Shown here piece by piece: positions 10,745 through 52,215 of a stretch of 52,215 nucleotides of DNA. The translations under genes and the position numbers were made by a program. Numbering within the stretch: position 1 is the stretch's first letter; each line of letters opens with the position of its first letter. The notes beneath the pieces are model-generated. The model ran no database searches and was not told the origin of the DNA. It saw only the letters and a list, made by a program, of their open reading frames with translations. The DNA is from a virus, in IMG/VR virus record IMGVR_UViG_3300045988_073749. One strand, 5' to 3'.

Positions 10745-11209
10745 ATGAAAAAGATTCTGCGTTCTATCCTTGGGAAGGACCTGAACGAAATGAACGATAG
10801 TGAGCTGTCTGGCAAAATAAAAGAAATGCAAGATACATACCAGCAAAGAAAGCCGTTGTCGTTCGATGAGTTGATGAAGGTTCCAATGGAACAGTGGGGA
10901 GATTACGATGTCGGGACAGTCCGATTTGTTCCGGCTGCTGGCGTAGAGCCGTGCGAGCTATGCTCCAAAGTTTCCGGCAAGTGCTTGTCTCTGTCGGATG
11001 CGAAATTTTACATTGACCACGTTAGGAAGAACCACCGGTCCCCTTTATGCCTAACCACAATCCCGGCACACAGGACCAAATATGGCTCTGGATGTACCCT
11101 CCCGGATGTACCGGAAGAAGGTTCGCCAGAGCTGCCCGGTTATCAGGTCTTCCACCAATGGGCGGAGGACGTCTTCAATCGGGACCGCCCTCCAGAGAGG
11201 GAGGAATAG
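10745..11209 (+). CDS. Hypothetical protein (lysogeny-module cargo; the region looks AT-richer than the rest by eye)
   Basis: ATG 10745 (alternatives: TTG 10736, GTG 10694) after GAAGGGAG. Confidence 0.45.
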   Translation: MKKILRSILGKDLNEMNDSELSGKIKEMQDTYQQRKPLSFDELMKVPMEQWGDYDVGTVRFVPAAGVEPCELCSKVSGKCLSLSDAKFYIDHVRKNHRSPLCLTTIPAHRTKYGSGCTLPDVPEEGSPELPGYQVFHQWAEDVFNRDRPPEREE

Positions 11210-11213
11210 CCAA

Positions 11214-12266
11214 ATGCCCACTTACAAAGACAAGGAACGGGGCACCTGGTACGCATCGTTTTACTACACGGACTGGCAGGGGCGCCGCCGCCTCAAAAAG
11301 AAGCGGGGCTTCCAGCGCAAGAAGGACGCCCAGGCGTTTGAGGAAGAGTTCTTGCGGACCCGCGCCCGGAGCTGTGACATGACCTTTCGCTCTTTCGCAG
11401 AAATCTACCTGGGGGACATGGAGCCGCGTCTCAAGCGGACCACCATGCAGAACAAGTGGTATCTCATCGAGCACCGGGTCCTCCCGTTCTTCGGGGACCT
11501 CCCGCTCAACGAGATTACCCCGGCCCACGTTCGCAAGTGGCAATCGCAGCTTCTCGCGGACAAGGTGGCCCCGACCTATGCAAAGACCATCAACAACCAG
11601 CTTTCGGCCATATTCAACTACGCCTGCAAATACTACGGCCTGGGTATCAATCCGGCCCGCCTCGCCGGTAGCGTGGGCAAGAAAGACGCCCAGGAGATGT
11701 CATTCTGGACGGTGGAGCAGTTCAACCAATTCATCCCCCACGTCAAGAAGCTGCCCGCCCGGACCGGCCTATCGGTTCTGTTCTGGACCGGCCTGCGGAT
11801 AGGGGAGCTGCTGGCGCTCTGCCCGGAGGACATCGACCTGGAGGCCCGGACCCTTACCGTCCGCCGGAACTTCCAGAGCGTAGAGGGCGAAGAGGTCATA
11901 ACGGACCCAAAGACCCAGCGAGGCCGCCGGGTGATACCGCTGCCGGAAAAGCTGTGCGATGAGATACGGGCTTATGAGAACGCCCTATACGACCCCCAGC
12001 CGGATGACCGGCTATTTCCGTTCACGAAGCACTATTTCCGGCGGGCGATGCTCAAGGGGTGCGTGGAGGCCGGTATGGACCCAATCAGGCTCCATGATCT
12101 GCGTCATTCCCACGCGGCCCTACTCATCCACCTGGGGACGCCTATTCTGCTGGTGAAAGAGCGCCTGGGCCATGAGGACATACAAACGACGCTGCGGACC
12201 TATGGGCACCTGTACCCCACCACCAGCGATGAAGCAGTCAAAAAGATGGATGATTTGATGCGTTAA
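11214..12266 (+). CDS. int: Tyrosine integrase
   Basis: MPTYKDKERGTWYASFYY... N-terminus; catalytic-region HDLRHSHAALLI and LGHEDIQTTLRTYGHLY; RBS GGGAGGAA. Confidence 0.9.
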   Translation: MPTYKDKERGTWYASFYYTDWQGRRRLKKKRGFQRKKDAQAFEEEFLRTRARSCDMTFRSFAEIYLGDMEPRLKRTTMQNKWYLIEHRVLPFFGDLPLNEITPAHVRKWQSQLLADKVAPTYAKTINNQLSAIFNYACKYYGLGINPARLAGSVGKKDAQEMSFWTVEQFNQFIPHVKKLPARTGLSVLFWTGLRIGELLALCPEDIDLEARTLTVRRNFQSVEGEEVITDPKTQRGRRVIPLPEKLCDEIRAYENALYDPQPDDRLFPFTKHYFRRAMLKGCVEAGMDPIRLHDLRHSHAALLIHLGTPILLVKERLGHEDIQTTLRTYGHLYPTTSDEAVKKMDDLMR

Positions 12267-12484: not shown

Positions 12485-13513
12485 TTATACCACGGTCAGG
12501 TAGGACAGCGCAACCCAGGACGTGATTTCCTTGAGAAGCGCCTCCTGGACCCCCTTGTGGGTGGCGATCTGCTTCACGGTGTACCGGCGGTTCTTGCCGC
12601 TCACGTAGTCCGGGACCTTGGCCCCTCTGGAGGTGGCGAGGCCGCCGTAGACGGCCCCGGCCTGGATGGTGACGGTGCTGCCCACCGTCACGGCCTTGGA
12701 CGCCGTAGAGCTGCTGGTGCCGTTCTTGGTGGCGTAGTCCAAAGAAATCCACCCGGCTCCGCTCTTGAGCTTGCCCCACTTGGAAGCGCCGGTGCCGCCG
12801 GCCTCCGCAACGATGGTGTAGACGCCGGGGTTGATAGCGCCCTTGCTGCCGTAGTTGGTGCCGGGGCCGGAACGGATATTGAGGTCCGTCGCTGTCACTT
12901 TCACCGTGTAGTTTACGGCTGTCTGAGCGCTGCCGGATGCGCCGGTGCCGGTGCTGGGGCTGGTGGTGCTGGAGCTGCCACCCAGCCGCTTCGTGACCTC
13001 GGCGGCAATCTCGCCGTGGAGGTTGTAGAGGTAATCGCCGGGGCAAGACTTGTTCGCAAACCAGCGGTGAACGGTCATCACCATCTCCCCGGACTTGGGG
13101 GCATAGGCAAGGGTCTTCGCCTTGTCCCCGAACCAGAGCAGCTTCTTGGCCCCGTTCCGGCGGCAAATATCCGTCACAAGGTCCAGCAGCGCGGCATAGG
13201 CCGCCGCCGTGACCTTGTAGGGGGCCTTGTTCTCGCTGGCCGTCTCAATGGTAATGGCGCGGTGGTCGTTGGAGGAGCTGGAGGTACACCAGCTCCGGTC
13301 CTTTTCCTCCACGCACAGGCCGATGGAGCCGTCATAGCCCACAACGTAGTTGCAGGACGCTTGCTTGCTGGAGGGCTGGAAGACCTCACACCCGCGCTTA
13401 GCCGTCACTTGGCCGACGAAACAATGGATGCTGATGGTGTCGATTTTATGATTGCGGGGACTGTTCTTGTTGGGGCTGATGAGGGTATAGGTCGCAAGGC
13501 TGCTGTTACTCAT
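12485..13513 (-). CDS. Endolysin: N-acetylmuramoyl-L-alanine amidase (Amidase_2/PGRP type) with C-terminal SH3-like repeats
   Basis: ...IDTISIHCFVGQ...NDHAITIET...HRWFANKSCPG; two similar C-terminal modules; ATG 13513. Confidence 0.8.
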   Translation of the reverse strand: MSNSSLATYTLISPNKNSPRNHKIDTISIHCFVGQVTAKRGCEVFQPSSKQASCNYVVGYDGSIGLCVEEKDRSWCTSSSSNDHRAITIETASENKAPYKVTAAAYAALLDLVTDICRRNGAKKLLWFGDKAKTLAYAPKSGEMVMTVHRWFANKSCPGDYLYNLHGEIAAEVTKRLGGSSSTTSPSTGTGASGSAQTAVNYTVKVTATDLNIRSGPGTNYGSKGAINPGVYTIVAEAGGTGASKWGKLKSGAGWISLDYATKNGTSSSTASKAVTVGSTVTIQAGAVYGGLATSRGAKVPDYVSGKNRRYTVKQIATHKGVQEALLKEITSWVALSYLTVV

Positions 13514-13874
13514 GGTTGGTTTCCTCCTTGTCCTCGCTGACTTCGGTAGTGGTCTCAATGGCGATGCCCTCCAGAGGGATGATGCCCTGGGTCAGCTCAT
13601 AGACGGCGGCCTCGATGAGCGCGTCAAGCTCATTCTCATTCACAGTGACGCCGCGCTCTTTCAGCCAGGCAATAACGTACTGCTTCTTCTCTTCTCCGTG
13701 CCCGCTGCCCTTGAAAATCTGCTCAGCAGCGGAGACGGCGATTTTGACCCAGGCGTTGATTTCCGCCTGCTGGGATGCCGTGGTCTTGGACTTGATGAAC
13801 GGGATGAGCACACAGGTAACGATGACGCCGATCAGAGCGGCCACAGCTTCGATGATAGGGGTGATGTCGTACAT
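13506..13874 (-). CDS. Holin (LL-H-like)
   Basis: N-terminal TM segment (PIIEAVAALIGVIVTCVLIPFI), then ...EQIFKGSGHGEEKKQYVIAWLKERG. Confidence 0.6.
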   Translation of the reverse strand: MYDITPIIEAVAALIGVIVTCVLIPFIKSKTTASQQAEINAWVKIAVSAAEQIFKGSGHGEEKKQYVIAWLKERGVTVNENELDALIEAAVYELTQGIIPLEGIAIETTTEVSEDKEETNHE

Positions 13875-15373: not shown

Positions 15374-17071
15374 TTAGATGTAGCTTGCGGACAGAGAGTA
15401 GCAGGCGATGCTTTCATACCCTCCGACCTTGGTGATCTGGACGCGGACACCCACCGCAAAGCTATCCGCAGTCTTCGCGGAATTGCTGAAAATGTGCTTG
15501 AGGCCGAGCTGTGCAGTCTCCCAGGTCGGCTCTTCGTCGTTGTAGTTGTTGCAGACCTGGATTGTCACGCCGTCCTCGTGGGCGTTGTACCGCATGGAGA
15601 CAAGGATTTTCTGAGCGGCGGCGCTGGTGTCATCCACCTTCCAGTCAAAGTCGATGATGGAGACGGACCGGGTAAAGGTGATGGTACGGGTGACGCTGTT
15701 CCCGGCGCTGTCCGAGACCTTGATAGTCATGGTGTGCGGCCCAGTGAGGGCGGCGAACTGCGCCGCCGTGAGCGCAAAGGTGTATTGGTGGTTCCGCTCT
15801 GCCGGGGTGATGGTATTAAGGGTCACACCATCCAGGCTCTCTACGATGGTGAGCGTGTCTCCGGCGTCCCCGTCGTTGACCGTGTACTGGAACGAGGGCG
15901 GCGTAGTCACCACGCCGAGCTGCTGATCGCTGCCGCTCACTGTCGGGTCTACATTGTGGGTGACGGTCCGGGTGGGGCTGGTGGTGTATGCGCTATACGC
16001 GGCCTTGCTGTCCTTGGCGCGGACCCGGTAGGCTACCGTGTTCATCGCCGTGGTGATCGTGTCGCTGAACTGCGTCGCAGCCCCGTCGTAGATTTTGGAC
16101 CATGCGCCGCTATTGTACTGCCGCTCAAGCTCGTAGCTTACGGCGTCGCTGTCCGGGTCCACCGACGCCGCCCAGGAGACGGTGAGACCTTTACCGCTCC
16201 GCACGTCCTCCGGCACGGTGATGGACGGGGGCGTGGTGGGGGCGTTATTCCAGATAATCGTGTAGTACCCCTCTCCATCCGGTGTATCAGATACCAAGAT
16301 GTCAGAGGACAGATTCAAAGCCGGGCGCACACCCCAGTTGCCGTAGTACGCGCTGTTGTAGTGGAGGCTCCCGTCCGAGTACACGCAGCGCACGTAGTAC
16401 GCGTTCGACGAATACGGGGAGCGGAGCCACCAGTACCAGAACTGCGACGCGCTCAAGCTGCTATTGGTGTACTCGCTGTTGCTCACGGCCTGAGCTGTGG
16501 GCTTGCACTGGCGGCTTGCGTTGTCGCTGAACATAGCCAGCTTCGTGCCCTCCGCGACGCCGTTCTCCGAACCGAGGCCAACCTCTGCCATGGACAGCAG
16601 AAAAATCTTGTCTTGGACGGTCTCGGACCCGCCGCCGTCCGTGCCGGGCTTTGCGACGGTCAGGGTGGTGGTGAGCAGCGCGGCCAGCATCTCCGCGCCG
16701 AAGCCGGTCAGGAAGCCGGATTGTGCGTCGTACGCGTTGTGGCCGTTCCAGACGTAGGAATTGGACGGGGGCCGGTCATAGCTGTGCTGGGCCTGATACC
16801 AGCCGGTCCCGCTCTTATTGAGCCACTGGCGGATGTTAGCCAGGGAATAGCGGTTGTTGCCGTATCTCTCCCGGTCCAAGATGCCGTCGCTCTCCATAGC
16901 GTCGAAGCAGCAGATTTTGATGATGCTCTCGGCCACAAGGGTTGTGCTGTTGGCCGGATAGCCTGCGTGGTTTTTATCACCGATTTCCCAGCCGATGGGG
17001 ATGCCGTAATACTTAGTCTTTGCGTCCCGCACTTTCGCCTTTACGGGTAGGGCGCTGATTTTCTGCGGCAT
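15374..17071 (-). CDS. DGR target protein 1: DUF6273-like/C-type-lectin-fold domain carrying VR1, followed by Fn3/Ig-like C-terminal domains (receptor-binding candidate)
   Basis: ...FLLSMAEVG...FWYWWLRSPYSSNAYYVRCVYSDGSLHYNSAYYGNWGVRPALNL...; contains VR1. Confidence 0.8.
   Translation of the reverse strand: MPQKISALPVKAKVRDAKTKYYGIPIGWEIGDKNHAGYPANSTTLVAESIIKICCFDAMESDGILDRERYGNNRYSLANIRQWLNKSGTGWYQAQHSYDRPPSNSYVWNGHNAYDAQSGFLTGFGAEMLAALLTTTLTVAKPGTDGGGSETVQDKIFLLSMAEVGLGSENGVAEGTKLAMFSDNASRQCKPTAQAVSNSEYTNSSLSASQFWYWWLRSPYSSNAYYVRCVYSDGSLHYNSAYYGNWGVRPALNLSSDILVSDTPDGEGYYTIIWNNAPTTPPSITVPEDVRSGKGLTVSWAASVDPDSDAVSYELERQYNSGAWSKIYDGAATQFSDTITTAMNTVAYRVRAKDSKAAYSAYTTSPTRTVTHNVDPTVSGSDQQLGVVTTPPSFQYTVNDGDAGDTLTIVESLDGVTLNTITPAERNHQYTFALTAAQFAALTGPHTMTIKVSDSAGNSVTRTITFTRSVSIIDFDWKVDDTSAAAQKILVSMRYNAHEDGVTIQVCNNYNDEEPTWETAQLGLKHIFSNSAKTADSFAVGVRVQITKVGGYESIACYSLSASYI
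16318..16425 (-). repeat. DGR variable region VR1 (108 nt)
   Basis: Gap-free alignment to the TR; 10 mismatches, all at TR adenines. Confidence 0.9.
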
Positions 17072-18119
17072 GGTTTGACTTTACACTCCTTTCAAAGATG
17101 GAGGCGCAAACCGCGTCGTACTTGGTGATGAGTTCCCGGCATTGGCCGTGGGAAGCATGAGACCTCCAGCTCTGGTAGCTCTCTTCAATCTGCTTCCGGG
17201 TCATAGCGCCGTTTTCATACATCACCGCGTATTTCCGCAGCTTGCGCCTCATACGGTCTTTGCTGGAACGCCTAACTTTCCGTATTACCTTTCCGGTGTC
17301 GGTCAGGTATGTGTGGAAGCCCAAAAAGTCCAGGCCGTTCCGCAAGGGGAAGATCTGTGTCTTCTGGTTTAGCTCAAGACCTCTCGGGGTCAAGAACTGC
17401 TCGACTTTCCTCCACGCTTCACGAAGCGCCTCCTTGCTCTCGCAGATGATATAAAAATCATCCATGTAGCGGCCATAGTACCGCATTCGGAGGACTTCTT
17501 TGACGTAGTGGTCGAGTTCATTCAGATACAATAGGGCGTACACCTGGGACGATTGATTGCCTATGGGGATGCCGACATTACCAGGGGTGCTATCTATGAT
17601 AGCGTCGGACAAGGCCCGGCTCCGTGGGTCTGTGAGCAGCTTATTGACATCTCGCTTGAGAATGTCGTGCCGGATGCTGGCGAAGTAGTGCCGGACATCC
17701 GCTTTCAGGACCCAGCCGTCGGCGCTCCCGTGCTTCCGGTAATACTCCCGCATGAAGTCACGGAGGCGGTCGAGGCCGAAGTGGGTTCCCTTTCCGACTT
17801 GGCTCCCGTAGTTATCCAGGATAAAGGGGCGGCTCAGGACGGGGTAAAGGATGTTGTCGCAAAAGGCGTGTTGCACGATTTTGTCCTTGACGCTGTTCGT
17901 CTGGATGAGGCGTCGCTTTGGCTCAAAGACGTAGAACTCATGGTAATTTCCAGGCTTGTAGAGACCGTCCCGCAGCTCAGCTTGCAGGACGGTGATCGCC
18001 TCCAGAGTGTTCAGCTCCACTTTGGCAACGGAGTCTTTCCATCGCTTGCCTTTCCTGGTTGCCCGATACGCCGCATAGAGATTAGCGAAGTCATAAACGA
18101 CTTCAAAATTCTGTTCCAT
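17013..18119 (-). CDS. DGR reverse transcriptase
   Basis: GIPIGNQSSQ, RYYGRYMDDF (YMDD), LGF; ATG 18119; the 3' end overlaps the target-1 start by 59 nt. Confidence 0.9.
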   Translation of the reverse strand: MEQNFEVVYDFANLYAAYRATRKGKRWKDSVAKVELNTLEAITVLQAELRDGLYKPGNYHEFYVFEPKRRLIQTNSVKDKIVQHAFCDNILYPVLSRPFILDNYGSQVGKGTHFGLDRLRDFMREYYRKHGSADGWVLKADVRHYFASIRHDILKRDVNKLLTDPRSRALSDAIIDSTPGNVGIPIGNQSSQVYALLYLNELDHYVKEVLRMRYYGRYMDDFYIICESKEALREAWRKVEQFLTPRGLELNQKTQIFPLRNGLDFLGFHTYLTDTGKVIRKVRRSSKDRMRRKLRKYAVMYENGAMTRKQIEESYQSWRSHASHGQCRELITKYDAVCASIFERSVKSNHAAENQRPTRKGESAGRKD

Positions 18120-18288
18120 AATAGGCACCTTGCGCCGCTGGTAGCGCCGAAGCTCCAATGGGCGAGCCTCAGCGCGTCGGCGCTATGTGTTTATCCCTGC
18201 CCTGTCAGGCCGGGACCGGATACGTCCTCCTTTGATGGTGGGCTTCTGCTTTCTCCCTTTCGGGTTACTCGGTCACGGTATTCCACCG

Positions 18289-18396
18289 AAGCCGGGCGCA
18301 CACCCCTGTTGCCGTTGTACGCGTTGTTGTTGTTGAGGCTCCCGTCCGAGTTCACGTAGCGCACGTTGTTCGCGTTCGACGAATTCGGGGAGCGGA
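18289..18396 (-). repeat. DGR template repeat (TR)
   Basis: AAC-rich pseudo-ORF (SPNSSNANNVRYVNSDGSLNNNNAYNGNRGVRPA) homologous to VR1 and VR2. Confidence 0.9.
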
Positions 18397-18448: not shown

Positions 18449-18877
18449 TCATCGCCGTGCGCCGCCGGTCTGAACTTGCTGCCGGAAGCGCTCGGCGTCC
18501 TTTTTACGCCACGACGCGGCAAGGTTCTTTACGTCGGTGGTGAGGCCCGTCCAATATTCACACCGCCTGATGTCGATATACCCCTGCTCCAGAGCTATAT
18601 CCAGGAAGTTCAGGAAGACCTTGCAGTTGGTCAAGACCTCTTTCTGGAGGTCAAGGCGCGTGTTCATCTCAGCGACGGTCCGAGGGTATATCTCGTTGGC
18701 CGCTATGATGTCATGCAGGATTTGGATTGAGAGGTTCTGCATCCTCTGGCAGAGGGTGAAGCGCACCTTTTTAGGGAACAGCTTAGTGTTGTTCGTGAGC
18801 TGCAAGGTATGGTTTACCAGGTCTTTTGCCTTGCAGATGATGGTGAGTTCACCGTGCCGGTTCTGCAAACAGGACAC
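18449..18877 (-). CDS. avd: Accessory variability determinant (Avd-like four-helix-bundle protein)
   Basis: ...KAKDLVNHTLQLTNNTKLFPKKVRFTLCQRMQN...; sits upstream of TR-RT; the start may be TTG 18868. Confidence 0.7.
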   Translation of the reverse strand: MSCLQNRHGELTIICKAKDLVNHTLQLTNNTKLFPKKVRFTLCQRMQNLSIQILHDIIAANEIYPRTVAEMNTRLDLQKEVLTNCKVFLNFLDIALEQGYIDIRRCEYWTGLTTDVKNLAASWRKKDAERFRQQVQTGGARR

Positions 18878-19092
18878 CTCCTTTCACGCAGGGCCTCCAG
18901 CTCATCAGCCGGTACGCCGTCCACTTCGAGGACGCCGGGCCGGACGCGGATAGTGACCCTCTGGCCTTTATATCCCAAACCGCAGAGCACAAGCCCCTCC
19001 AGGCCCTCGCAGGGGCAAGGGGTCTCCAGCTCTGCGATAAGGTTCGGAATAAGACAGCTCGCCTCTTCGGGGCTGCAAAGTAGCCCCGTCAT
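18814..19092 (-). CDS. Hypothetical protein (92 aa)
   Basis: ATGA coupling to the tail-fibre stop at 19089-19092. Confidence 0.35.
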   Translation of the reverse strand: MTGLLCSPEEASCLIPNLIAELETPCPCEGLEGLVLCGLGYKGQRVTIRVRPGVLEVDGVPADELEALRERRCPVCRTGTVNSPSSARQKTW

Positions 19093-19817
19093 GCTGTGAT
19101 GGAGCGTCCGGTCTGGCTCCAAACTCCGTCGCGCATGGCGATACCGGCGAGGGTGGCAAAGTCGGCGGTCTTGTTGATGCCTCCGGGCATATCGCCGGAC
19201 ACCAGATCGTTGAGTAGGTCGATTGCGGCCGCATGGTCGCTCAGGGTGTTGGCGAGGCCGGAAACGTCGCTGATTTCATGGCTGTGGCCCAGGAGCGCAT
19301 ACTTTTCCAGGTCCACCACGCGGGCCAGGGCGTCCGGGTCGATGATGGCCGAAACGCTCGCCGCTGCGCCCACAATGTTGATGATGTTGAAAGTCACCAT
19401 CTTGTTTACCGGGCTGCCCTGGGGCCTCATCCACTCCGGCTTGCTCTGGAGGGGCAGATAGGAATAGGCAACGTCGCCCTCGCCCTCCGGGTCCTTGATG
19501 TAGAGCATGACGCCCTTGACGTAGAAGCCGGTCTCGACGCCCACGCTGGTAGCCTGGACCACCACCGTAGCCTCGCCGGTGCCGGTATTCTCACACTTGG
19601 CAATCATGGCGTCTCCGGCATACTCAATCGGGGCGGTCAGGTCTTCAACCACCGTCCCCTCCGGGAGATCGCCGCTGTCCAGCTCCGCCTTTGTGAACTG
19701 GATGCCGCCGCTCCCAGCCATGACTTTACCCAGGGCGGTGTAGCCGCTGTTGAGCAGCACCGCGCCCTCTTCGCTCTCCGCGATGTCGGGAGAGGCCAGA
19801 ATTTCTCTGTTTGGCAT
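19089..19817 (-). CDS. Tail fibre protein
   Basis: Follows the baseplate genes; ...LLGHSHEISDVSGLANTL... fibre-type motif. Confidence 0.6.
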   Translation of the reverse strand: MPNREILASPDIAESEEGAVLLNSGYTALGKVMAGSGGIQFTKAELDSGDLPEGTVVEDLTAPIEYAGDAMIAKCENTGTGEATVVVQATSVGVETGFYVKGVMLYIKDPEGEGDVAYSYLPLQSKPEWMRPQGSPVNKMVTFNIINIVGAAASVSAIIDPDALARVVDLEKYALLGHSHEISDVSGLANTLSDHAAAIDLLNDLVSGDMPGGINKTADFATLAGIAMRDGVWSQTGRSITA

Positions 19818-46700: not shown

Positions 46701-47519
46701 TTACTTGACCTCCGGCCACACCATGCCGTCCGGGTGGTCTCTGATGAGATCGTCGCCCCAGATCGGCGCCAGGCTGTCCTTCATAAAGACGGCGGCATGG
46801 GTCAGGCCAGCGGCCTCCACGATGTTCTCTACCCACTCCCGCTTCGGCTGGTGCTTCTTGCTACCGGGCCCGGTCATAGCCCCTACGATAACCCAACGGA
46901 CGCCTCCGAAGCTCCCGAGACCGGCCTCCAGGTTCTCCATGAGCGGTTCAATGCTCAAGAAGGTATTGAAGTCCACGCTGGTCGCAAAGAGGGGAGCTCC
47001 CTTCCCGGTCACGCTGGTCCCGTACCAGAAGTTATCCCGCTTCGGCAGCTTCCCGGCGTTCGCCAGATCGCAATACCGCTGTGGGTTCTTGGTGAGGAAC
47101 AGGTAGGTGTGCTGCGGTGCCTTGTCGCAGGCATCGAAGACATCCTGAATCCAGATGTCCGGCACCCACTCCCCGAACAGATCGCCCATGCTGGAGACGA
47201 ACACCCGGGACGGGATAGCCCGCTTGGCCGGATAGTCCAGTGTGTAGGTGTGGAAGGTGGGCGCGAATCCCTTCGGGTACGGCGTGGTCCTCGCATAATT
47301 CTGGACGTCGTCCACCGCGTTGCACGGTGAGTTACTGACGTAGATGCCGGACCCCTTGGGAAGATACTCCATAGGCTCCGGCTCCGGCCGCTCACAGGGC
47401 TGCGGCTTGAACCGGTCGATAAATCGCCGGGCGTAACAGTAGGGGCAGCCATGCAGGCAGCCGGTCACCGGGTTCCAGGTGTGGGTACACCATTCGATTT
47501 TGCTTTTGTGCAGGTTCAT
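46701..47519 (-). CDS. Phage Gp37/Gp68 family (DUF5131) protein
   Basis: KIEWCTHTWNPVTGCLHGCPYCYA N-terminus with a CxxxCxxC motif. Confidence 0.7.
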   Translation of the reverse strand: MNLHKSKIEWCTHTWNPVTGCLHGCPYCYARRFIDRFKPQPCERPEPEPMEYLPKGSGIYVSNSPCNAVDDVQNYARTTPYPKGFAPTFHTYTLDYPAKRAIPSRVFVSSMGDLFGEWVPDIWIQDVFDACDKAPQHTYLFLTKNPQRYCDLANAGKLPKRDNFWYGTSVTGKGAPLFATSVDFNTFLSIEPLMENLEAGLGSFGGVRWVIVGAMTGPGSKKHQPKREWVENIVEAAGLTHAAVFMKDSLAPIWGDDLIRDHPDGMVWPEVK

Positions 47520-47525
47520 GGTCAG

Positions 47526-47870
47526 CTATCTCCTTTCGTCGAGCCATCCGCAGCGCGAGTTACACGGGTCCGGGCAGGCCGCGCAGCAGTCGTATGGCTC
47601 CGAACAGTATGCGGCCGCGCCACAGTGCCCGCTTGGGCTTTTCCCGGTGATACACTTCCCGTTCAAGGGGCTCTTGCTTTCCTCCGGCTGCGTCATATCA
47701 AACAGGCTACATTGGTTCTCCATCATCTTCCGGTCGGCCTCCTCCTGCCTCATCTTTCGGAGGCAGCAGGGGCCGTACCCGTCCCGGAGCCCCTGGGAGC
47801 TCGTGAGCAATCCTCCACACCGTTTGCACCGGCGGGCAGGGATGGTGAAGACCTCCTCCTTGGCGCTCAT
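47526..47870 (-). CDS. Cys-rich protein (DUF6011-like N-terminus, Cys-rich C-terminus)
   Basis: CKRCGGLLTSSQGLRDGYGPCC...; CCAACPDPCNSRCG. Confidence 0.45.
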   Translation of the reverse strand: MSAKEEVFTIPARRCKRCGGLLTSSQGLRDGYGPCCLRKMRQEEADRKMMENQCSLFDMTQPEESKSPLNGKCITGKSPSGHCGAAAYCSEPYDCCAACPDPCNSRCGWLDERR

Positions 47871-48022
47871 GCTCCCCAGGCGGCCAAGATCGCCAGGGCA
47901 ATCAAACCGGCCGCCGTGACCCTGGACCCGTTGCTGCGGTCCATCTGCGTCTTACCTCCGAACGTGTAGCAGAATCCGCAGAAGGTGAACAGGATGGTGA
48001 TGATCTGCGCGGAAATTAACAT
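47867..48022 (-). CDS. Small two-TM membrane protein (51 aa)
   Basis: MLISAQIITILFTFCGFCY...AAGLIALAILAAWGA; trimmed from track ORF 47867..48169. Confidence 0.4.
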   Translation of the reverse strand: MLISAQIITILFTFCGFCYTFGGKTQMDRSNGSRVTAAGLIALAILAAWGA

Positions 48023-48026
48023 AGGC

Positions 48027-48908
48027 TTATCCCTCCAGAAGGCTTTCCAGGTTGTCCAGTCTCTTGCACTCCATCTCGCTGTTGTCCCCGAAGATGACGT
48101 GGAGCTGGTTGAGCATGATCTCAACGTCGGCCCGCTCCATGGAGATGTTGTCGCGGATGGCCTGCTCATCCCCGATACCGTAGTCCTCGCAGAACACCAG
48201 CTTCAAGATGGCCTGGGACAGCTCGCTCATCTCCTCAATCGCCTTGAGGGCCTGGGCTCTCTTGCCCCACTTGGCAACGGCCTTCTCATAGAGTGCCATC
48301 TCGCGCTGCTCCGGGGTCATCTCCTCCGGCTCCTCCGCCTGGTCTTCCTGGTCATCGACAGATACCAAGATGTCAGATTTCAGGGTCAAAGCCGGGCGCA
48401 CACCCCCGTCGCCGACGTACGCGAGGTCGTAGTCGAGGCTCCCGTCCGAGTACACGAAGCGCACGAAAGAGGTGCCGGAGCTGGCGGGCGTACCATCGGG
48501 GGTAATGAGCCAGCGCCAGTGTTCCGGCGCAGGGTGAAGGTCTCTGGTCTCCCGGTATTCATCCGCCGTCAGCATGGTCACCTTATCGAGGCAAGCCCCG
48601 TAGTCGTTGAGGCCATCATCGGCGGTCAGATCGCGGTAGGTGGGGACGATGAACTCCAGGATGCCGGGGCGTTCCTTCTCCAGGGCGTCCAGGAAGTCAC
48701 CGTTCAGCCGCTCCCGCAGGCTGGCGTTATTCCAGTTGTTGTTGCCGTTCTCGTCGAAGGGTGCCTGGAAGATGTCTTCCGCAGCCTCGCAGAAATAGTT
48801 CTGCACGGCTCCAGAGTGGGCGGGCTCAAGCTCCTTGAGCACCTTCCAGTTGATACCGGCCAGGGCGAAGGTGTCGCCACGGCGCAGCGCGTTCAGTTTG
48901 ACTTCCAT
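48027..48908 (-). CDS. DGR target protein 2: DUF6273-like/CLec-fold domain with VR2, an acidic linker, and a MazG-like all-alpha NTP-pyrophosphohydrolase-type C-terminal domain
   Basis: ATG 48908 after AGGAGG; ...WRWLITPDG...FVRFVYSDGSLDYDLAYVGDGGVRPALTL...; C-terminal KAIEEMSELSQA... and ...MERADVEIMLNQL. Confidence 0.7.
   Translation of the reverse strand: MEVKLNALRRGDTFALAGINWKVLKELEPAHSGAVQNYFCEAAEDIFQAPFDENGNNNWNNASLRERLNGDFLDALEKERPGILEFIVPTYRDLTADDGLNDYGACLDKVTMLTADEYRETRDLHPAPEHWRWLITPDGTPASSGTSFVRFVYSDGSLDYDLAYVGDGGVRPALTLKSDILVSVDDQEDQAEEPEEMTPEQREMALYEKAVAKWGKRAQALKAIEEMSELSQAILKLVFCEDYGIGDEQAIRDNISMERADVEIMLNQLHVIFGDNSEMECKRLDNLESLLEG
48389..48467 (-). repeat. DGR variable region VR2 (79 nt of TR homology)
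   Basis: 13 mismatches to the TR, all at TR adenines; homology ends after TR position 79. Confidence 0.85.
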
Positions 48909-48924: not shown

Positions 48925-49137
48925 TTATTTATTGGGGCGTTTCCCCCGGGGCAGCTTCTTATTGGCCGACGTTTTCGCGGTAGGAAGGACCTGGCCGCAG
49001 CGGCTCGGGTGGTTGAGGCACGGGTTTTTGCAGGTCCCGTTATTCTCTGGGTTGTACCCGCAGTCAGCGCAGCAGACGTTCCCATGCCTTCGGTCGCAGT
49101 TGAAGATCGTGCATCCTCTCGGGTATGATCTGCTCAT
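48925..49137 (-). CDS. Cys-rich small protein (70 aa)
   Basis: CTIFNCDRRHGNVCCADCGYNPENNGTCKNPCLNHPSRCG. Confidence 0.45.
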   Translation of the reverse strand: MSRSYPRGCTIFNCDRRHGNVCCADCGYNPENNGTCKNPCLNHPSRCGQVLPTAKTSANKKLPRGKRPNK

Positions 49138-49146
49138 TCAGATCAC

Positions 49147-49377
49147 CTACACATTCTGGAACCGATTGGGGCAGTTCACGTTATTGCAGAAACGCTCCGT
49201 TCCGATCTCCCGCAGCGGATGCCCGCAGTATTGGCAGAATCGGCCAGGCTGCCGGGTCGGTTCCTCGTCGGCGTGGGTTCCCCCAAACCTCATACGGTTT
49301 ACCATGCACATGATAGAGCCAGGCTGCGCGGCTGCGCTGCACTCGCTCTTGGCCTTGCAGGTGTAGCAGTTATACAT
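49147..49377 (-). CDS. Zinc-ribbon small protein (76 aa)
   Basis: CYTC...C; CQYCGHPL...CNNVNC. Confidence 0.45.
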   Translation of the reverse strand: MYNCYTCKAKSECSAAAQPGSIMCMVNRMRFGGTHADEEPTRQPGRFCQYCGHPLREIGTERFCNNVNCPNRFQNV

Positions 49378-49741
49378 TCACATCCTCCTCCAGGTACTTT
49401 TCCCAGGTGCGCCGCATGGGTTCCTCTCCCATCATGTAGGCCCACACCCGATCATTCTTCTCGGTAAGCTCAAGGGCATATAGGGCAGCTTCCCTCGGCG
49501 TCCTGAACACCTTTTTTCCGATGTCCTTGTTCTTGTAGTAGTGCAACTGCCGGTATCCGTCTGGGCCGGGCCCATGAAGGACCATCTCATCCCATTTCGG
49601 TAGCAGTTTTTGGACCTCCGCTCTGCACACGCAATACTCCTTCTCGCAAAGGTGGCTGCCCTTCGGCGTGTAGAAGTGCTCTACTACGACCCAGAAGACC
49701 TCTCCGACCTTTGCCTGGTCTCTCGCGCTCACTATCATCAT
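49370..49741 (-). CDS. Hypothetical protein (start uncertain: ATG 49741/49738 or GTG 49732)
   Basis: AGGAGG abuts the first ATG. Confidence 0.45.
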   Translation of the reverse strand: MMIVSARDQAKVGEVFWVVVEHFYTPKGSHLCEKEYCVCRAEVQKLLPKWDEMVLHGPGPDGYRQLHYYKNKDIGKKVFRTPREAALYALELTEKNDRVWAYMMGEEPMRRTWEKYLEEDVNV

Positions 49742-50334
49742 CCTCCTTCGTAGGGGTCCGGCAAGCTCCAGTCCCACGTTTCCCCGGTCTTCTCGTACTC
49801 CTTGCGGAAGTGGTTCTCCACTCCGTCTCCCTCGAAGAACAGGTAATCGGCCGGCAGCGTGCGGCCCACATCTTCCTCGCCAGCCTTTTCGGCCCCCCAG
49901 CGCAGAAGGACATCCTCAGCCAGTATCAGGAACTCTCCTGTCACCGGGGATGCCGGGTCGTAGGCGAACTGGTAAGGGGCGCTTACAACTTCCGCGATGG
50001 TCTCGCCATATCCACCGGCGTCCACCCGATTGAGGACGCACCAGACGACGGCCGCTTGCTGTGCTTTGCTCTTAACACCCCGGGCCTCCGCCCAGACTGT
50101 CTTCGCCAGCATCTCGATCTCCTGATGTGTCCAGGGGATCTCTGGCTCATCTGATGTCACATCGTCCGGGTCAGGAAGCAAAACAGAGCCTTCCCCAATC
50201 TCGATCTGAACCAGGTCCCCAGGGGCGGATTCCTCACCCGCCTCGGTGCCGAGCCGAAGCCCTCCGACGGTCACGCTTGCAAACAGGACCGCGCAGAGGG
50301 TCAGACACACGGCCACCACCAGTTTCTCTTTCAT
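49738..50334 (-). CDS. Secreted SleB/CwlJ-type cell-wall hydrolase
   Basis: Signal-peptide-like MKEKLVVAVCLTLCAVLFASV; ...TVWAEARG...VVWCVLNRV... Confidence 0.7.
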   Translation of the reverse strand: MKEKLVVAVCLTLCAVLFASVTVGGLRLGTEAGEESAPGDLVQIEIGEGSVLLPDPDDVTSDEPEIPWTHQEIEMLAKTVWAEARGVKSKAQQAAVVWCVLNRVDAGGYGETIAEVVSAPYQFAYDPASPVTGEFLILAEDVLLRWGAEKAGEEDVGRTLPADYLFFEGDGVENHFRKEYEKTGETWDWSLPDPYEGG

Positions 50335-50374
50335 GGGTACCACCTCTCGTTTTAATGCCACAGCGGGCAAGATT

Positions 50375-51094
50375 TTACCGGCCCATCCGGTTATCCCTGT
50401 CATAGTCATAGTCGTAGGCGTCATCCACAGACTTGATATTTCGAGCCCCAAAGTTGCGGTATATGGCATTTATGTATCTCCAGTTCACCGCGCCTGCAAG
50501 GCTGGCCTGCTCAAAAGCATAGACCAGGAGGGCCTTTTTCTCCTCCGATACCGTCATGACCGTGCCTTCCGGCCCTGTGCCCTCCTGATCTGTGATCTTG
50601 CGGAACACTTCGAGTTCGTCCCTCTGGGTCGCTCTCTCTCCCGGCCGGAACGTATCAAGCAGCTCTTGTGTTACGCTCTTGATCTCGCTCCCGATCTCCT
50701 CCGTGTAGCCGAAGTACCTGGTGTAGTCGTCCTCCAGGTATCCTTCGATGCCTGGCCTATCATTGGCCGGGTATACGTCGCTGCTTCCGGCGGCGTCCGG
50801 GTACTCCTGGAAGGCGATGGACACCAGCTTGTACCGTCCAGGTTTCTTCTTGACGCCCTTCTCGTAGATCAGCAGCCCGGCGTCCATGAGCTGTTGCCTC
50901 GCCGTCCGTACTGTTTTGTCAGAGCCGGACCCAAGGAGGGCTGTTAATCTGTCATTGTCTACGCTGAACCACTCCGGCCAGTGTAGCCTATTGGAAAACG
51001 CCATGAGCTTGTACCATAGGAGCTGCGCCGTAGCCGGGAGGGGCTGCCGTTTCATCCGCCGTTCAAAGGCATTTATCTCCAAGATGTAGTTCAA
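50375..51094 (-). CDS. DnaD-like replication protein / replisome organiser
   Basis: N-terminal winged-helix-like segment (...LWYKLMAFSN...DKTVRTARQQLMDAGLLIY) and C-terminal DnaD-type segment (...LVYAFEQASLAGAVNWRYINAIYRNF). Confidence 0.6.
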   Translation of the reverse strand: MNYILEINAFERRMKRQPLPATAQLLWYKLMAFSNRLHWPEWFSVDNDRLTALLGSGSDKTVRTARQQLMDAGLLIYEKGVKKKPGRYKLVSIAFQEYPDAAGSSDVYPANDRPGIEGYLEDDYTRYFGYTEEIGSEIKSVTQELLDTFRPGERATQRDELEVFRKITDQEGTGPEGTVMTVSEEKKALLVYAFEQASLAGAVNWRYINAIYRNFGARNIKSVDDAYDYDYDRDNRMGR

Positions 51095-51142: not shown

Positions 51143-52215
51143 TTATTCCATCGTGACTGTGCTCCCGTCCTCTCCGCCGGTTACCACGATGTTCTGCACA
51201 AACCGGGCCTTCATGGTCGGGTCGTGCGAGATAGCAAGGATTCTCATATTGGGGTTTCTGGAGGCCATGGCGGCCAGGGCGTCGGCGTAGGCCTCGGTTC
51301 CGTCGGCGTCCAGGAAGGGGGGCTCGTCGATGAACAGCATCCCAAGCTGCACCCCCGCCCGGCGAGCTTTCACGTCAGCCAGGCCCAGGGTGACGGCCAG
51401 CGCGATCTTGACCTTCTCGCCTCCACTGTGGGAGAGGTAGGGTCTGTTGCCTCCTGTGATGGTGTTAATCCACACCTCCAGGCTGTTCACGATCTGCTTC
51501 GTGGACTTCTGCTCCCGCTCGGTTCGGATGTCCACCGCCATACGGCCGCCGGTCATGGCTGCCAGAATTTCATTGGACCGGCGCATGATCTCCGGCACGA
51601 CGCCGCGCACGATCATGTACTGGATGCCGTCCAGGCCAAATGCCTGGGCCAGGGTGGTGTAGTCGCTCAAGACCACGCCGACGGCTTCCGCCTCCCGGCG
51701 GAGCTCCGAGGACTTGGTCTCCGCCTCTGCGATGTCCTCCAGCTTTGCCTTGAGCTGTCCCCGGCGGGTTGCTAGGTCGGTGAGGGACCGTCGCTGCGCT
51801 TCGATGTTGGCGCGGATGCGGTCTGCCACGTTCCCACCTCCCGGCACGCGGGCGGCGATCTCGTCGGCCTCTCGAAGTGCCTGCTCGGACTTGCCGCGCA
51901 GCTCCTCCACTTCCGCCTTGAGCTTCCTGATCTGCGGCTCCAGGGCCTCGGCCTTCGCTGCGGCCGCCTGACACTCCGCCAGAGTATCAGCCAAAACGGA
52001 AAAGGCCTTCACGTCTCCCTCGGCCTCCTGGTAGGCGGTAACGGCCTGGGCGAGCTTCACGCGCTCAGCGTCGATCTCGTCGATGCGGGCCGCCGCTGCA
52101 TCGAAGGTCCGTTTCACTTCCAGGACGGACGCCTCGAGTTTCTCCAGGGTAGCTTCCGCAACCGCGATGTCCGCCTCCTTCGAGGCGATGGAACGGAGGC
52201 GCCGCTCCTTGTACT
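51143..52215 (-). CDS. C-terminal part of the SbcD-SbcC fusion ORF (continues from 1..2784 through the circular junction)
   Basis: Coiled coil, then ...LSHSGGEKV (ABC signature) and GMLFIDEPPFLD (Walker B/D-loop); same frame as 2784..1 once the 52,138-nt period is applied. Confidence 0.85.
   Translation of the reverse strand, partial: YKERRLRSIASKEADIAVAEATLEKLEASVLEVKRTFDAAAARIDEIDAERVKLAQAVTAYQEAEGDVKAFSVLADTLAECQAAAAKAEALEPQIRKLKAEVEELRGKSEQALREADEIAARVPGGGNVADRIRANIEAQRRSLTDLATRRGQLKAKLEDIAEAETKSSELRREAEAVGVVLSDYTTLAQAFGLDGIQYMIVRGVVPEIMRRSNEILAAMTGGRMAVDIRTEREQKSTKQIVNSLEVWINTITGGNRPYLSHSGGEKVKIALAVTLGLADVKARRAGVQLGMLFIDEPPFLDADGTEAYADALAAMASRNPNMRILAISHDPTMKARFVQNIVVTGGEDGSTVTME
52139..52215. 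repeat. Second copy of the 77-nt closure overlap
   Basis: Identical to 1..77. Confidence 0.95.

Follow-up and report, generated by a model that had tools for sequence, protein, structure and literature searches.

The virus whose DNA was analyzed here (IMG/VR record IMGVR_UViG_3300045988_073749; the whole stretch of 52,215 nucleotides [nt] is called the window) carries a DGR with two targets, and in the second of them, target 2, a hypervariable DUF6273/C-type-lectin-like domain is joined to a MazG-like domain. Judged from its repeat match and from its variation in natural populations, the target-2 gene is functionally targeted, from a remote position, by the single DGR (diversity-generating retroelement) of this gut phage. 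Our best inference from domain architecture and gene position is that the hypervariable protein would function inside the infected cell and not on the virus tail.

The DGR cassette and the second target gene

The reverse transcriptase (RT), an Avd-like protein, and the template repeat (TR) are present in one genome together with VR2, the variable region of target 2, and the TR sits between the RT gene and the bAvd-like gene (Table 1). Target 1 (15374-17071) fits the definition of the tentaclins, a family described in PMC10743442, in that an N-terminal DUF6273 domain is followed by Ig-like domains. Its variable region, VR1 (16424..16318), differs from the TR at 10 positions, all 10 of which are TR adenines. 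Target 2 has no Ig-like domain and falls outside the tentaclin definition.

Table 1. Features of the DGR and of the target-2 gene in the window
Feature	Coordinates	Strand	Evidence
Target 1, tentaclin-type (DUF6273 + Ig-like domains), carries VR1	15374..17071	-	Pfam DUF6273 E 6e-37, Big_9
DGR reverse transcriptase, 381 aa, YMDD	17013..18158	-	Pfam RVT_1 E 5.6e-20, translation
Template repeat (TR), 107 nt	18289..18395	-	Repeat family D1, adenine-only mismatches
bAvd-like accessory protein	18449..18877	-	Pfam bAvd E 1.2e-7, below gathering score
Target-2 gene (293-aa lectin-linker-MazG-like protein)	48027..48908 (stop codon within end coordinate)	-	ORF list and translation
MazG-like all-alpha NTP-pyrophosphohydrolase domain, four helices, residues 199-293	48030..48314	-	phrog_2245, AF2, Foldseek
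ExxD motif (E258 R A D261)	48126..48137	-	Invariant, 53 homologues
EExxE motif (E225 E226 M S E229)	48222..48236	-	Conservation, BcMazG alignment
Acidic flexible linker VDDQEDQAEEPEEM, residues 185-198	48315..48356	-	pLDDT, DNA read
DUF6273/C-type-lectin-like domain, residues 1-184	48357..48908	-	PF19789, phrog_9958, Foldseek
19-nt element TCTGACATCTTGGTATCTG, situated downstream of VR2 at a distance of 11 nt	48359..48377	-	Alignment and flank comparison
VR2 core, 77 nt, residues 148-173	48389..48465	-	11/11 mismatches at TR adenines; population variation

Translation of 48027..48908 on the minus strand yields the 293-aa protein quoted in the preliminary description. The ATG at position 48908 lies behind a Shine-Dalgarno sequence (AGGAGG) 8 nt upstream. 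A longer, 352-aa open reading frame starting at 49085 is not needed and was rejected, since it would run into the Cys-rich gene upstream and since the Shine-Dalgarno sequence at the ATG at 48908 is strong. The protein has 268 homologues at E<=1e-3, mostly full length; among the INPHARED phages, neither a full-length lectin-MazG homologue nor a close relative of this genome region was found. The maximum Kyte-Doolittle mean over 19 residues is 0.7 and thus the protein contains no transmembrane-like segment, as had been claimed. Lack of a signal peptide, as read in the preliminary description, would be equally usual in a virion protein and does not separate a cytoplasmic from a virion protein.

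The N-terminal part was originally described as a DUF6273-like/C-type-lectin domain that contains VR2, and both family databases agree with this assignment: Pfam DUF6273 (PF19789) matches residues 52-178 (E 1.9e-8), and phrog_9958, a family of small DGR targets, matches residues 2-213 (E 2e-66). In Foldseek comparisons, the modelled domain was paired with BFVD entries for DUF6273 proteins (E 5e-8) and with the IgA peptidase of T. ramosa (9qa6; E 4.7e-5), the N-terminal domain of which is DUF6273. DUF6273 itself has been assigned as C-lec (PMC10743442). VR2 occupies the C-terminal end of this C-type-lectin-fold domain (residues 148-173, against 52-178 for the Pfam match).

VR2 is diversified in natural populations

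Alignment of VR2 (48465..48389) with the TR (18365..18289) revealed 11 mismatches, all of them at TR adenines. As 19 of the 77 TR positions are adenines, the probability of such a pattern arising by chance is about 2e-7. The comparison was extended to the seven IMG/VR contigs that hold both a target-2 homologue and the TR region beside the RT; in these, VR2 can be aligned with the TR of its own contig for about 77 nt, and 51 of the 53 mismatches fall at adenines. Among 16 relatives with 95-98% identity, variation occurs almost only at residues 151, 153, 159-162, 165, 167, and 168, and a second lineage (a cluster of 7,330 members) exhibits the identical pattern of variation restricted to VR2 codons. 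When target 2 was compared with two phages of 97% identity, the 77-nt core accounted for 9 of the 20 nucleotide differences from one and for 14 of the 22 from the other. The possibility raised in the preliminary description that VR2 might be invariant across populations has therefore fallen away, and its proposal that VR2 is diversified is borne out by the variation seen in nature.

The same comparisons allowed us to separate selection on the variable region from that on the remainder of the protein. In seven of eight comparisons, dN/dS of the variable region was 1.0-3.4, and that of the scaffold was 0.2-0.6; for the C-terminal domain, the values were 0.12-0.57. Scaffold and C-terminal domain are thus under purifying selection. 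In most of the eight comparisons, dS was only 0.07-0.2 in the variable region versus about 1.0 in the scaffold, and synonymous divergence so far below that of the flanks points to ongoing overwriting from the TR. In this process, TR-derived cDNA (from 18.3 kb) replaces the 77-nt VR2 (at 48.4 kb) and thereby randomizes about 10 codons on the surface hairpin of the lectin-like domain.

We also considered that VR2 could be a degenerating relic, left by duplication of a lectin domain and TR-like by mere resemblance. VR2 does share only the 3′ 77 nt (18365..18289) of the 107-nt TR, and it is followed by no significant hairpin: when the sequences after VR1 and VR2 were searched for a BPP-1-like hairpin, they folded no better than shuffled sequence (z about -0.4). 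A relic, however, would not be expected to differ from the TR at adenines only, to confine its hypervariation to adenine-templated codons across thousands of cluster members, or to keep a dS far under that of its flanks, the signature of continuing overwriting, and we regard this explanation as extremely improbable. With regard to an IMH-type 3′ boundary, VR1 and VR2 have a GC-rich 3′ end in common (GGGGTGTGCGCCCGGCTT) that the TR does not share, and the 19-nt element TCTGACATCTTGGTATCTG downstream of VR2 recurs identically downstream of VR1 (16288-16306) and is missing after the TR. It is a possible candidate for a target-recognition flank.

The C-terminal domain is a divergent MazG-like fold

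The C-terminal domain had been suspected to resemble all-alpha MazG-type NTP pyrophosphohydrolases. Modelled alone by AF2, it folds into four helices with a pLDDT of 97.4. The best 50 Foldseek matches in the PDB are all MazG-like NTP-PPases (DCTPP1/RS21-C6, iMazG, DR2231, BcMazG, and AF1178), with probabilities of 0.80-0.99 and TM scores of 0.43-0.59, at weak E values of 0.09 or worse. The phage NTP-PPases in BFVD are closer (TM 0.70-0.77, rmsd 2.7-3.4).

At the sequence level, membership in the MazG superfamily rests on the match to phrog_2245, "nucleoside triphosphate pyrophosphohydrolase" (E 4e-16). Pfam returned no match for this domain at E<=1, and the gathering score of MazG (PF03819) was not reached; among 68 relatives, 3 match PF03819 at E<=0.01, and one relative, P0180, reaches E 4e-8. 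When PDB sequences were searched with the single sequence, only chance-level matches were obtained, and a profile search placed a STAS-domain protein first (E 0.0024), followed by the MazG entries 5ie9 and 2q73 at E 0.025-0.08, which provides weak support at best.

The MazG superfamily is defined by a metal-binding motif, EExxE(12-28)ExxD. Target 2 contains both halves of this motif, with 28 residues between E229 and E258. Across 53 full-length homologues, E225 and E229 never vary, and conservation of E226 is 90% or higher; the EExxE positions are likewise at least 90% conserved in the 68 relatives, most of which are stand-alone proteins, and they align with EEMGEL of BcMazG (5ie9). Collectively, the profile match, the predicted structure, and the conserved motif identify the C-terminal 95 residues as a divergent MazG-like member of the all-alpha NTP-pyrophosphohydrolase superfamily that has kept its acidic metal-binding residues, and the earlier assignment was thus upheld.

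Target 2 lies in the replication module and probably arose by fusion

Target 2 is surrounded by genes for SbcC-like and DnaD-like proteins, a cell-wall hydrolase, small Cys-rich proteins, DUF6011, and DUF5131, and further by a Holliday-junction resolvase, a methyltransferase, and a sigma-like regulator. The order SbcC-DnaD-hydrolase-u70-[gene]-DUF6011-DUF5131-resolvase-regulator-TerL, an array upstream of the terminase, is kept in about 20 loci. Relative to the late regulator, the gene is about 4 kb upstream, and about 28 kb separate it from the tail fibre gene (19089-19817). Neighbors and synteny therefore place it in a replication or early-middle module and outside the tail module, as had been asserted.

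Several observations bear on how the two domains came together. In three sibling phages (L004, L049, and L056), the slot of target 2 is occupied by a stand-alone MazG-like gene of 114 aa, which suggests that an enzyme already resident there probably acquired the lectin domain by fusion. At seven loci, a lectin gene and a MazG-like gene occur separately, 2-10 kb apart on one strand. The acidic linker VDDQEDQAEEPEEM noted in the preliminary description is present, with residues 187-194 modelled at a pLDDT below 50. Its DNA contains GGAGGAG repeats immediately before the M197 codon, and homology to the stand-alone MazG-like protein starts at MTPEQREMALYE. We propose that the gene of a small DGR-target lectin fused onto the resident MazG gene, and that the linker, with its Shine-Dalgarno-like GGAGGAG sequence, would be an apparent former intergenic region.

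It could be argued that the fusion is fortuitous, a small DGR-target gene having been extended, by loss of its stop codon, through the neighboring MazG gene, so that the two domains work independently, one in dNTP house-cleaning and the other in an unrelated lectin function. The linker with its retained GGAGGAG repeats and the ATG where stand-alone homology begins would fit such an accident, as would the separate genes in other phages and the full-length AF2 model, in which the domains do not pack against each other (pTM 0.61). Yet lineages that share from 97% to as little as about 43% identity have all retained the fusion, and a second one has formed with another lectin subtype: a search for this architecture in other phages, as had been suggested, revealed an AT-rich phage (40% GC) in which a tentaclin-type lectin domain is fused to the MazG family of target 2, probably an independent second event. 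A third arrangement is seen in phage nd12, where a MazG-like gene is followed by a kinase-like-lectin gene. Such repeated linkage of lectins with nucleotide enzymes argues for functional coupling, and we therefore hold a fortuitous fusion to be quite unlikely.

The enzyme is nevertheless not essential to the role of the lectin domain, because many small targets of the phrog_9958 family (28 fetched loci, including Lelie and nd4) have no enzyme domain at all. A hidden MazG in orf59, which follows the small target of Lelie, was considered and discarded (hhalign probability 0.4%), and a comparison with PHROGs revealed no family for the extensions that some other small targets (L042/L053 and L060 types) have at the N terminus.

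Relation to known diversified proteins

Remote small second targets have been described in gut Firmicutes phages, namely, target 2 of nd4 and nd12 (Baykov et al. 2023, PMC10743442), and further remote small DUF6273 targets in Lelie/CP11 (PMC11792537) and in FP_Toutatis/Toutatisvirus (bioRxiv 10.1101/2024.10.15.618418). They resemble target 2 in belonging to phrog_9958, in the DUF6273/C-lec domain with the variable region at its end, and in lying many kb from the TR among nonstructural genes; as here, target 1 is a tentaclin beside the RT. Unlike target 2, the published small targets (215-297 aa) lack a MazG-like domain. In place of MazG, nd12 target 2 combines an N-terminal DUF3310 domain (nucleotide-kinase-like) with the lectin domain, and the gene immediately before it encodes a pyrophosphatase; in nd4, target 2 adjoins a DNA-polymerase exonuclease gene. 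All three analyses (PMC10743442, PMC11792537, and 10.1101/2024.10.15.618418) interpret the small targets as Mtd-like receptor-binding proteins and leave the link to nucleotide enzymes unmentioned.

The Mtd of Bordetella phage BPP-1 shares with target 2 a variable domain that adopts a C-type-lectin fold and a C-terminal variable region rewritten from the TR by adenine mutagenesis. In contrast to target 2, Mtd is a trimeric tail-fibre tip with a beta-prism and a beta-sandwich, and its gene neighbors that of the RT within the tail module. Target 2 shows neither of these Mtd-like traits: its gene is located outside the tail module, it lacks N-terminal domains for virion attachment, and Pfam and the AF2 model contain no beta-prism, beta-sandwich, or Ig attachment domain and only two domains in all.

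Hypervariable lectin-enzyme fusions have a precedent in Quimbyvirus ORF84 and the CotH-kinase-C-lectin fusions (Benler et al. 2021, PMC8008677), phage DGR targets that lie outside the structural module and for which a nonstructural, conflict-related role was argued. Those systems, however, belong to Bacteroides phages and have other partner domains and other neighbors (methyltransferases and a tRNA ligase), with no MazG. Kinase-lectin and STAND-NTPase-lectin fusions among the intracellular DGR targets of bacteria, proposed to be diversified sensors (PMC7517822 and PMC7159879), likewise join a variable lectin to a cytoplasmic nucleotide-using domain, but they are cellular multidomain proteins of signalling or conflict, whereas target 2 is a small phage protein of the replication module. 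On the enzyme side, the MazG domain shares the four-helix fold, the EExxE...ExxD motif, a length of about 100 aa, and the genomic slot with stand-alone phage MazG-like proteins (phrog_2245), and fold and motif with DCTPP1/RS21-C6, integron iMazG, DR2231, and BcMazG. It differs from the stand-alone forms in being fused behind a DGR-diversified lectin and in being too divergent for Pfam MazG.

The preliminary description had called target 2 unusual. This holds for the MazG fusion and its implication, which are new, but not for a remote small DUF6273 target as such (nd4/nd12, Lelie/CP11, and Toutatisvirus), nor for a nonstructural second target or a kinase-lectin fusion (PMC8008677). Our literature searches yielded no report of a MazG-fused target for DGRs with MazG or pyrophosphohydrolase and nothing decisive for phage MazG as an antidefense factor.

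Proposed function

The fusion of lectin and MazG, together with the location in the replication module, suggests action inside the infected cell and not on the virus tail. We consider it fairly probable that target 2 is made with the replication genes, acts in the cytoplasm and not in the virion, and, after fusion onto the resident MazG gene, uses its variable lectin domain to tether or regulate the MazG-like enzyme. The MazG family dimerizes, and the MazG domain of target 2 probably does so too; the predicted dimer would be active as a nucleotide pyrophosphatase and would also display the variable lectin domains in multivalent form. The variable domain would then tether or regulate the enzyme via a ligand that differs between hosts, most likely a host or defense factor or a nucleotide-related molecule, and the phage could retune this intracellular interaction in each generation. 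We counted in favor of an intracellular role the kinase-like/pyrophosphatase linkage in nd12, the exonuclease adjacency in nd4, and the lack of a transmembrane segment, and against it the enzyme-less family members and the published Mtd-like interpretations.

Target 2 might instead be a virion-associated or released receptor-binding protein, the lectin of which, like Mtd, recognizes a ligand on the cell surface or in the environment, the MazG-like bundle being only an oligomerization or attachment module. Every published reading of homologous small targets is of this kind, many family members have no enzyme domain, and the sister target, tentaclin, has been reported in a bacterial secretome. 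DGR variable proteins need avidity, moreover, and MazG-type bundles oligomerize. The gene is, however, fixed in the replication module far from the tail fibre gene, and the protein is devoid of beta-prism, beta-sandwich, and Ig attachment domains. The domain has preserved its catalytic acidic residues together with every other position conserved in the family, which is more than a mere scaffold would require; a stand-alone enzyme fills the slot in sibling phages, and related targets are fused to or adjoin other nucleotide-metabolism genes. Hence, we judge a receptor-binding role unlikely.

The intracellular reading can be taken one step further, to a DGR that serves as an adaptive counterdefense. 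The lectin would evolve from one phage generation to the next to capture variable host immune proteins or immune/alarm nucleotides, and the tethered pyrophosphatase would destroy the bound or locally made nucleotide, or binding would switch it on or off. We put this forward as a speculative extension that is more probably wrong than right by a good measure. If true, the repeated linkage of the target family with nucleotide enzymes (MazG-like, kinase-like DUF3310, adjacent pyrophosphatase, and polymerase exonuclease) would point to an entire class of gut-phage effectors that are tuned by DGRs and act within the cell but are now annotated as receptor-binding proteins.

Significance

The current view of phage DGRs is almost entirely one of devices that switch tropism by way of tail proteins. 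Here, a remote second target, the active diversification of which is evident from thousands of natural variants, is linked covalently with a nucleotide-hydrolase-like domain whose counterpart in sibling phages is an ordinary gene of the replication module. The fusion provides the first domain-level clue to the role of the widespread small DUF6273 targets in phages of human-gut Firmicutes and challenges their published receptor-binding interpretation. Whether targeted hypermutation serves intracellular phage conflicts becomes a directly testable question, for which target 2 is well suited, being small and soluble-looking, with an enzyme domain that lends itself to assays and with variable-region sequences that nature supplies as a ready library.

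A second, remote target of the DGR

The window ends in an exact 77-nt terminal direct repeat (bases 1-77 = 52139-52215) and thus constitutes a circularly closed contig of approximately 52.1 kb; an SbcC-like gene spans the contig junction. The contig is the genome of a temperate tailed phage, and since its prophage relatives reside in Pseudoflavonifractor and Flavonifractor genomes, its host is an Oscillospiraceae bacterium of the gut. A long minus-strand array starting with the primase runs over the junction through genes for SbcC-like, DnaD-like, cell-wall hydrolase, and small Cys-rich proteins to target 2 (T2), and then through DUF6011, DUF5131, Holliday-junction resolvase, methyltransferase, and sigma-like regulator genes. 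Terminase, portal, protease, major head protein, and tail fiber genes follow, and then the DGR cassette and the endolysin. T2 indeed lies among replication genes, as the preliminary description had stated, and the tail fiber gene lies elsewhere.

The cassette is arranged on the minus strand in the order bAvd, TR, RT, and target 1, a "tentaclin" as that term is used by Baykov et al. 2023 (PMC10743442). All 10 mismatches between VR1 and the TR are at TR adenines. A third copy of the repeat, VR2, was found within T2, 30 kb from the cassette; it resembles only the 3′ 77 nt of the 107-nt TR, and the sequences upstream are unrelated. Its 11 mismatches in 77 nt are likewise all at TR adenines (A>T, 5; A>G, 5; A>C, 1), and since adenines make up 19 of the 77 residues of the TR core, the probability of this occurring by chance is approximately 2 × 10−7. 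The translated T2 open reading frame (ORF), which starts at ATG 48908 with AGGAGG 8 nt upstream, is identical to the protein quoted in the preliminary description and, together with the adenine-only mismatches, confirms the original observation of a second target. The 19-nt element TCTGACATCTTGGTATCTG is shared by both targets despite diverged flanking coding sequence and was absent after the TR in a comparison of the flanks; no significant hairpin accompanies it after VR1 or VR2. This element may be part of the DGR target-recognition signal.

Features of the phage genome discussed in the text
Feature	Coordinates	Strand	Remarks
Primase	4590-5696	-	annotation; start of long minus-strand array
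Repressor	9717-10100	+	annotation
Integrase	11082-12266	+	annotation
Endolysin	12485-13558		annotation
Target 1	17071..15374	-	565 aa; DUF6273 + Ig-like domains
VR1	16424..16318	-	inside target 1
RT	18158..17013	-	
TR	18395..18289	-	107 nt
bAvd	18877..18449	-	
Tail fiber gene	19089-19817		annotation
VR2 core	48465..48389	-	77 nt; inside ORF 48908..48027 (T2)
19-nt element TCTGACATCTTGGTATCTG	48359-48377 and 16288-16306	-	identical; 11 nt downstream of VR2 and VR1
Small membrane protein	47867-48022	-	51 aa; phrog_38445 (E value of 4 × 10−19); two hydrophobic segments (MLISAQIITILFTFCGFCYTF...AAGLIALAILAAWGA)
Cys-rich flanking proteins (u70, u76, DUF6011-like) and DUF5131	46701-47519, 47526-47870, 48925-49377	-	
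SleB-type cell-wall hydrolase	49738-50469	-	243 aa; N-terminal hydrophobic segment; Pfam Hydrolase_2; phrog_30550

VR2 is diversified in natural populations

T2 fell into a 90%-identity cluster of 1,104 distinct sequences; a lineage 61% identical to it comprised 7,330. In 16 relatives of 95-98% identity, the C-terminal 93 residues were identical and variation was concentrated at positions 151, 153, 159-162, 165, 167, and 168, which are TR-adenine-templated codons, while in the second lineage columns with at least five residue types occurred only at 153, 159-162, 165, and 167. In nucleotide comparisons with two 97%-identical phages, the 77-nt core accounted for 9 of 20 and 14 of 22 differences. 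Seven IMG/VR contigs carried a homolog (61-98% identity) and a TR region adjoining the RT, and in each of them VR2 matched the local TR over approximately 77 nt, with 51 of the 53 mismatches at adenines. Pairwise dN/dS was 1.0-3.4 in the VR in seven of eight comparisons; for the lectin scaffold it was 0.2-0.6 and for the C-terminal domain 0.12-0.57. Synonymous divergence in most comparisons amounted to 0.07-0.2 in the VR versus approximately 1.0 in the flanks, as predicted if the VR is continually overwritten by the TR. VR2 is a live DGR target, rewritten specifically at adenines from a single TR; the diversification ascribed to it earlier is borne out in both lineages, and a dead VR2 is hardly credible.

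The lineages of T2 and RT proved to be shuffled (IMG/VR contigs L008/L102, L013/L092, and L014/L093), with one contig combining a 97%-identical T2 with a 74%-identical RT and others a 61%-identical T2 with a 98%-identical RT. VR2 nevertheless still tracks the resident TR, which points to exchange of the cassette and its subsequent re-homing to the remote target.

T2 combines a lectin-like and a MazG-like domain

Residues 1-184 of T2 matched Pfam DUF6273 (E value of 1.9 × 10−8) and, along the full stretch, phrog_9958 (E value of 2 × 10−66), which also includes the "small" DGR targets of Faecalibacterium phage Lelie, nd4, and nd12. The AlphaFold model of T2 (mean pLDDT of 84.6) places a mixed alpha/beta domain before four long helices (199-292), and the acidic linker noted previously was modeled between them as disordered (187-194; pLDDT of <50). 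The best BFVD neighbors of the model were DUF6273 proteins, and the best solved neighbor was the Thomasclavelia ramosa IgA peptidase 9qa6 (E value of 4.7 × 10−5), whose N-terminal domain is DUF6273. This match (model m146c1debd393) ties phage DGR targets to a domain of a gut-bacterial IgA-cleaving enzyme.

The C-terminal domain had no Pfam match; it matched phrog_2245, "nucleoside triphosphate pyrophosphohydrolase" (E value of 4 × 10−16), and had 1,362 relatives at an E value of ≤1 × 10−3, the best-scoring of which were mostly stand-alone proteins of approximately 90-130 aa. When it was modeled alone with 67 relatives (pLDDT of 97.4), the best 50 PDB matches were all MazG-like all-alpha NTP pyrophosphohydrolases, namely DCTPP1/RS21-C6, integron iMazG, DR2231, BcMazG, and AF1178 (probability of 0.80-0.99; weak E values of 0.09 or worse; TM of 0.43-0.59). 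Predicted phage NTP-PPases from BFVD superposed better (TM of 0.70-0.77; rmsd of 2.7-3.4 Å), and the modeled likeness to solved MazG proteins is moderate. Among 53 full-length homologs, E225, E229, E258, and D261 were invariant and E226 nearly so, and stand-alone relatives conserved the same acidic positions plus G215, Q219, L230, A260, V262, M265, and Q268. The motif aligns with EEMGEL...EEELGD of BcMazG, and the MazG metal-binding residues are retained. The MazG-like character proposed in the preliminary description is thus upheld, and by modeled fold and motif we assign the domain to the MazG-like superfamily, as a divergent member that fails the curated Pfam model.

Origin and spread of the fusion

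Gene order was compared by tblastn of the window proteins against 85 related loci. The conserved order was SbcC-DnaD-hydrolase-Cys-rich u70-(lectin-MazG)-DUF6011-DUF5131-u98-u99-resolvase-regulator-TerL, where u98 and u99 are further window proteins. The u70, u76, DUF6011-like, and DUF5131 genes are all syntenic with the target 2 slot in relatives, and the DUF5131 (Gp37/Gp68-type) protein has a CxxxCxxC-like N terminus. The 243-aa hydrolase gene is part of the replication module and distant from the endolysin, a position kept in related phages. The ORF of the 51-aa membrane protein, also in this module, begins 5 nt past the T2 stop codon.

In a Muriventricola aceti prophage (L004) and two further loci (L049 and L056), the slot before DUF6011, bounded on its other side by u70 or, in L056, by the hydrolase, contains MazG-like sequence only. 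In the prophage this is a stand-alone 114-aa gene whose homology to the fusion protein starts exactly at MTPEQREMALYE, corresponding to M197 of T2. Just before the M197 codon, the linker DNA (48315-48340, minus strand; GGCGGAGGAGCCGGAGGAGATG) contains two Shine-Dalgarno-like repeats, whose spacing is lost in relatives with a 3-aa shorter linker. The simplest history suggested by these sequences would be an in-frame fusion of a small lectin-type target gene to a resident MazG gene via its former ribosome-binding region. Possibly the repeats are what remains of the ancestral ribosome-binding site, and translation might perhaps start internally to give a free MazG domain.

When all fetched loci were searched with profiles, the same lectin-MazG architecture was found in other phages, with 28 loci containing the fusion, 28 the lectin only, 25 the MazG-like domain only, and 7 separate genes on the same strand 2-10 kb apart; because the loci were picked with patterns from both domains, the sample is biased and these counts are not frequencies. 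An AT-rich phage of approximately 40% GC (IMG/VR loci L064 and L065) encodes a 314-aa fusion in which a tentaclin-type lectin (phrog_10993), not phrog_9958, is joined to a MazG part of the same family (phrog_2245; E value of 9 × 10−22), and to judge from its domains this fusion probably arose independently. At the start of the L065 contig, 320 nt of the fusion gene recur with 14 differences, most of which cluster in the VR; this looks like an assembly bubble from VR heterogeneity.

Target 2 of nd12 (OR777946.1, 4294-5600; L166) joins phrog_9958 to an N-terminal DUF3310 (Pfam E value of 2.5 × 10−16; PHROG "nucleotide kinase" families, E value of 4 × 10−31), previously treated as an alpha-helical motif with no assigned role (PMC10743442). 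There is a 7-nt overlap between its gene and the end of a "pyrophosphatase" gene (phrog_3301; E value of 6 × 10−40) with weak MazG and PRA-PH Pfam matches. The nd4 target 2 immediately precedes a DNA-polymerase exonuclease gene, and the Lelie target has methyltransferase and peptidase genes as neighbors on one flank, with regulator and replication-initiation genes on its opposite flank. Thus, the small-target family is repeatedly fused or adjacent to genes of nucleotide and DNA metabolism, and in the loci examined it was never found in the tail module. Many members lack an enzyme domain. Both domains of T2 are under purifying selection. We regard a neutral fusion of independent functions in T2 as quite improbable.

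Proposed function

We favor the reading that T2 is intracellular, with its lectin and enzyme functionally coupled, as the probable one. T2 would be made together with the replication genes, and the lack of a virion-attachment domain and of a transmembrane segment (highest 19-residue hydropathy mean of 0.7, in keeping with the earlier description) suggests that it stays in the cytoplasm. It may oligomerize via its MazG bundle, as the MazG family does, which would create a multivalent, DGR-tunable binding surface coupled to a predicted nucleotide pyrophosphatase. Candidate ligands are a variable host or defense factor or a nucleotide-like small molecule.

Viral DGR targets are mostly tail proteins (Roux et al. 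2021), and an Mtd-like receptor-binding role has been suggested for the small target (PMC10743442; bioRxiv 10.1101/2024.10.15.618418). T2 could be a virion or released receptor-binding protein whose bundle is only an oligomerization module; with its gene in the replication array, we consider this unlikely. The combination of a tentaclin adjoining the RT with a remote small DUF6273 target has been described in nd4/nd12 (PMC10743442), in Lelie/CP11 (PMC11792537), where the function of the small target was left open, and in Toutatisvirus, whose second VR is in a core gene 17.5 kb from the TR (bioRxiv 10.1101/2024.10.15.618418). For Quimbyvirus, Benler et al. 2021 (PMC8008677) argued for a non-structural, conflict-related second DGR target; they also mentioned CotH-kinase-lectin fusions in phages, and intracellular kinase- or STAND-lectin DGR targets are known in bacteria (PMC7517822, PMC7159879).

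The literature searched contained no report tying a DGR target to MazG or a pyrophosphohydrolase. Long UniProt-derived BFVD entries, automatically named "NTP-PPase-like protein," align over 284-286 columns; the lectin-MazG architecture has therefore probably been deposited already, and we found no discussion of it in that literature. What our analysis adds is a domain-level argument that gut-phage DGR targets of this widespread class work intracellularly, in a nucleotide-related context.
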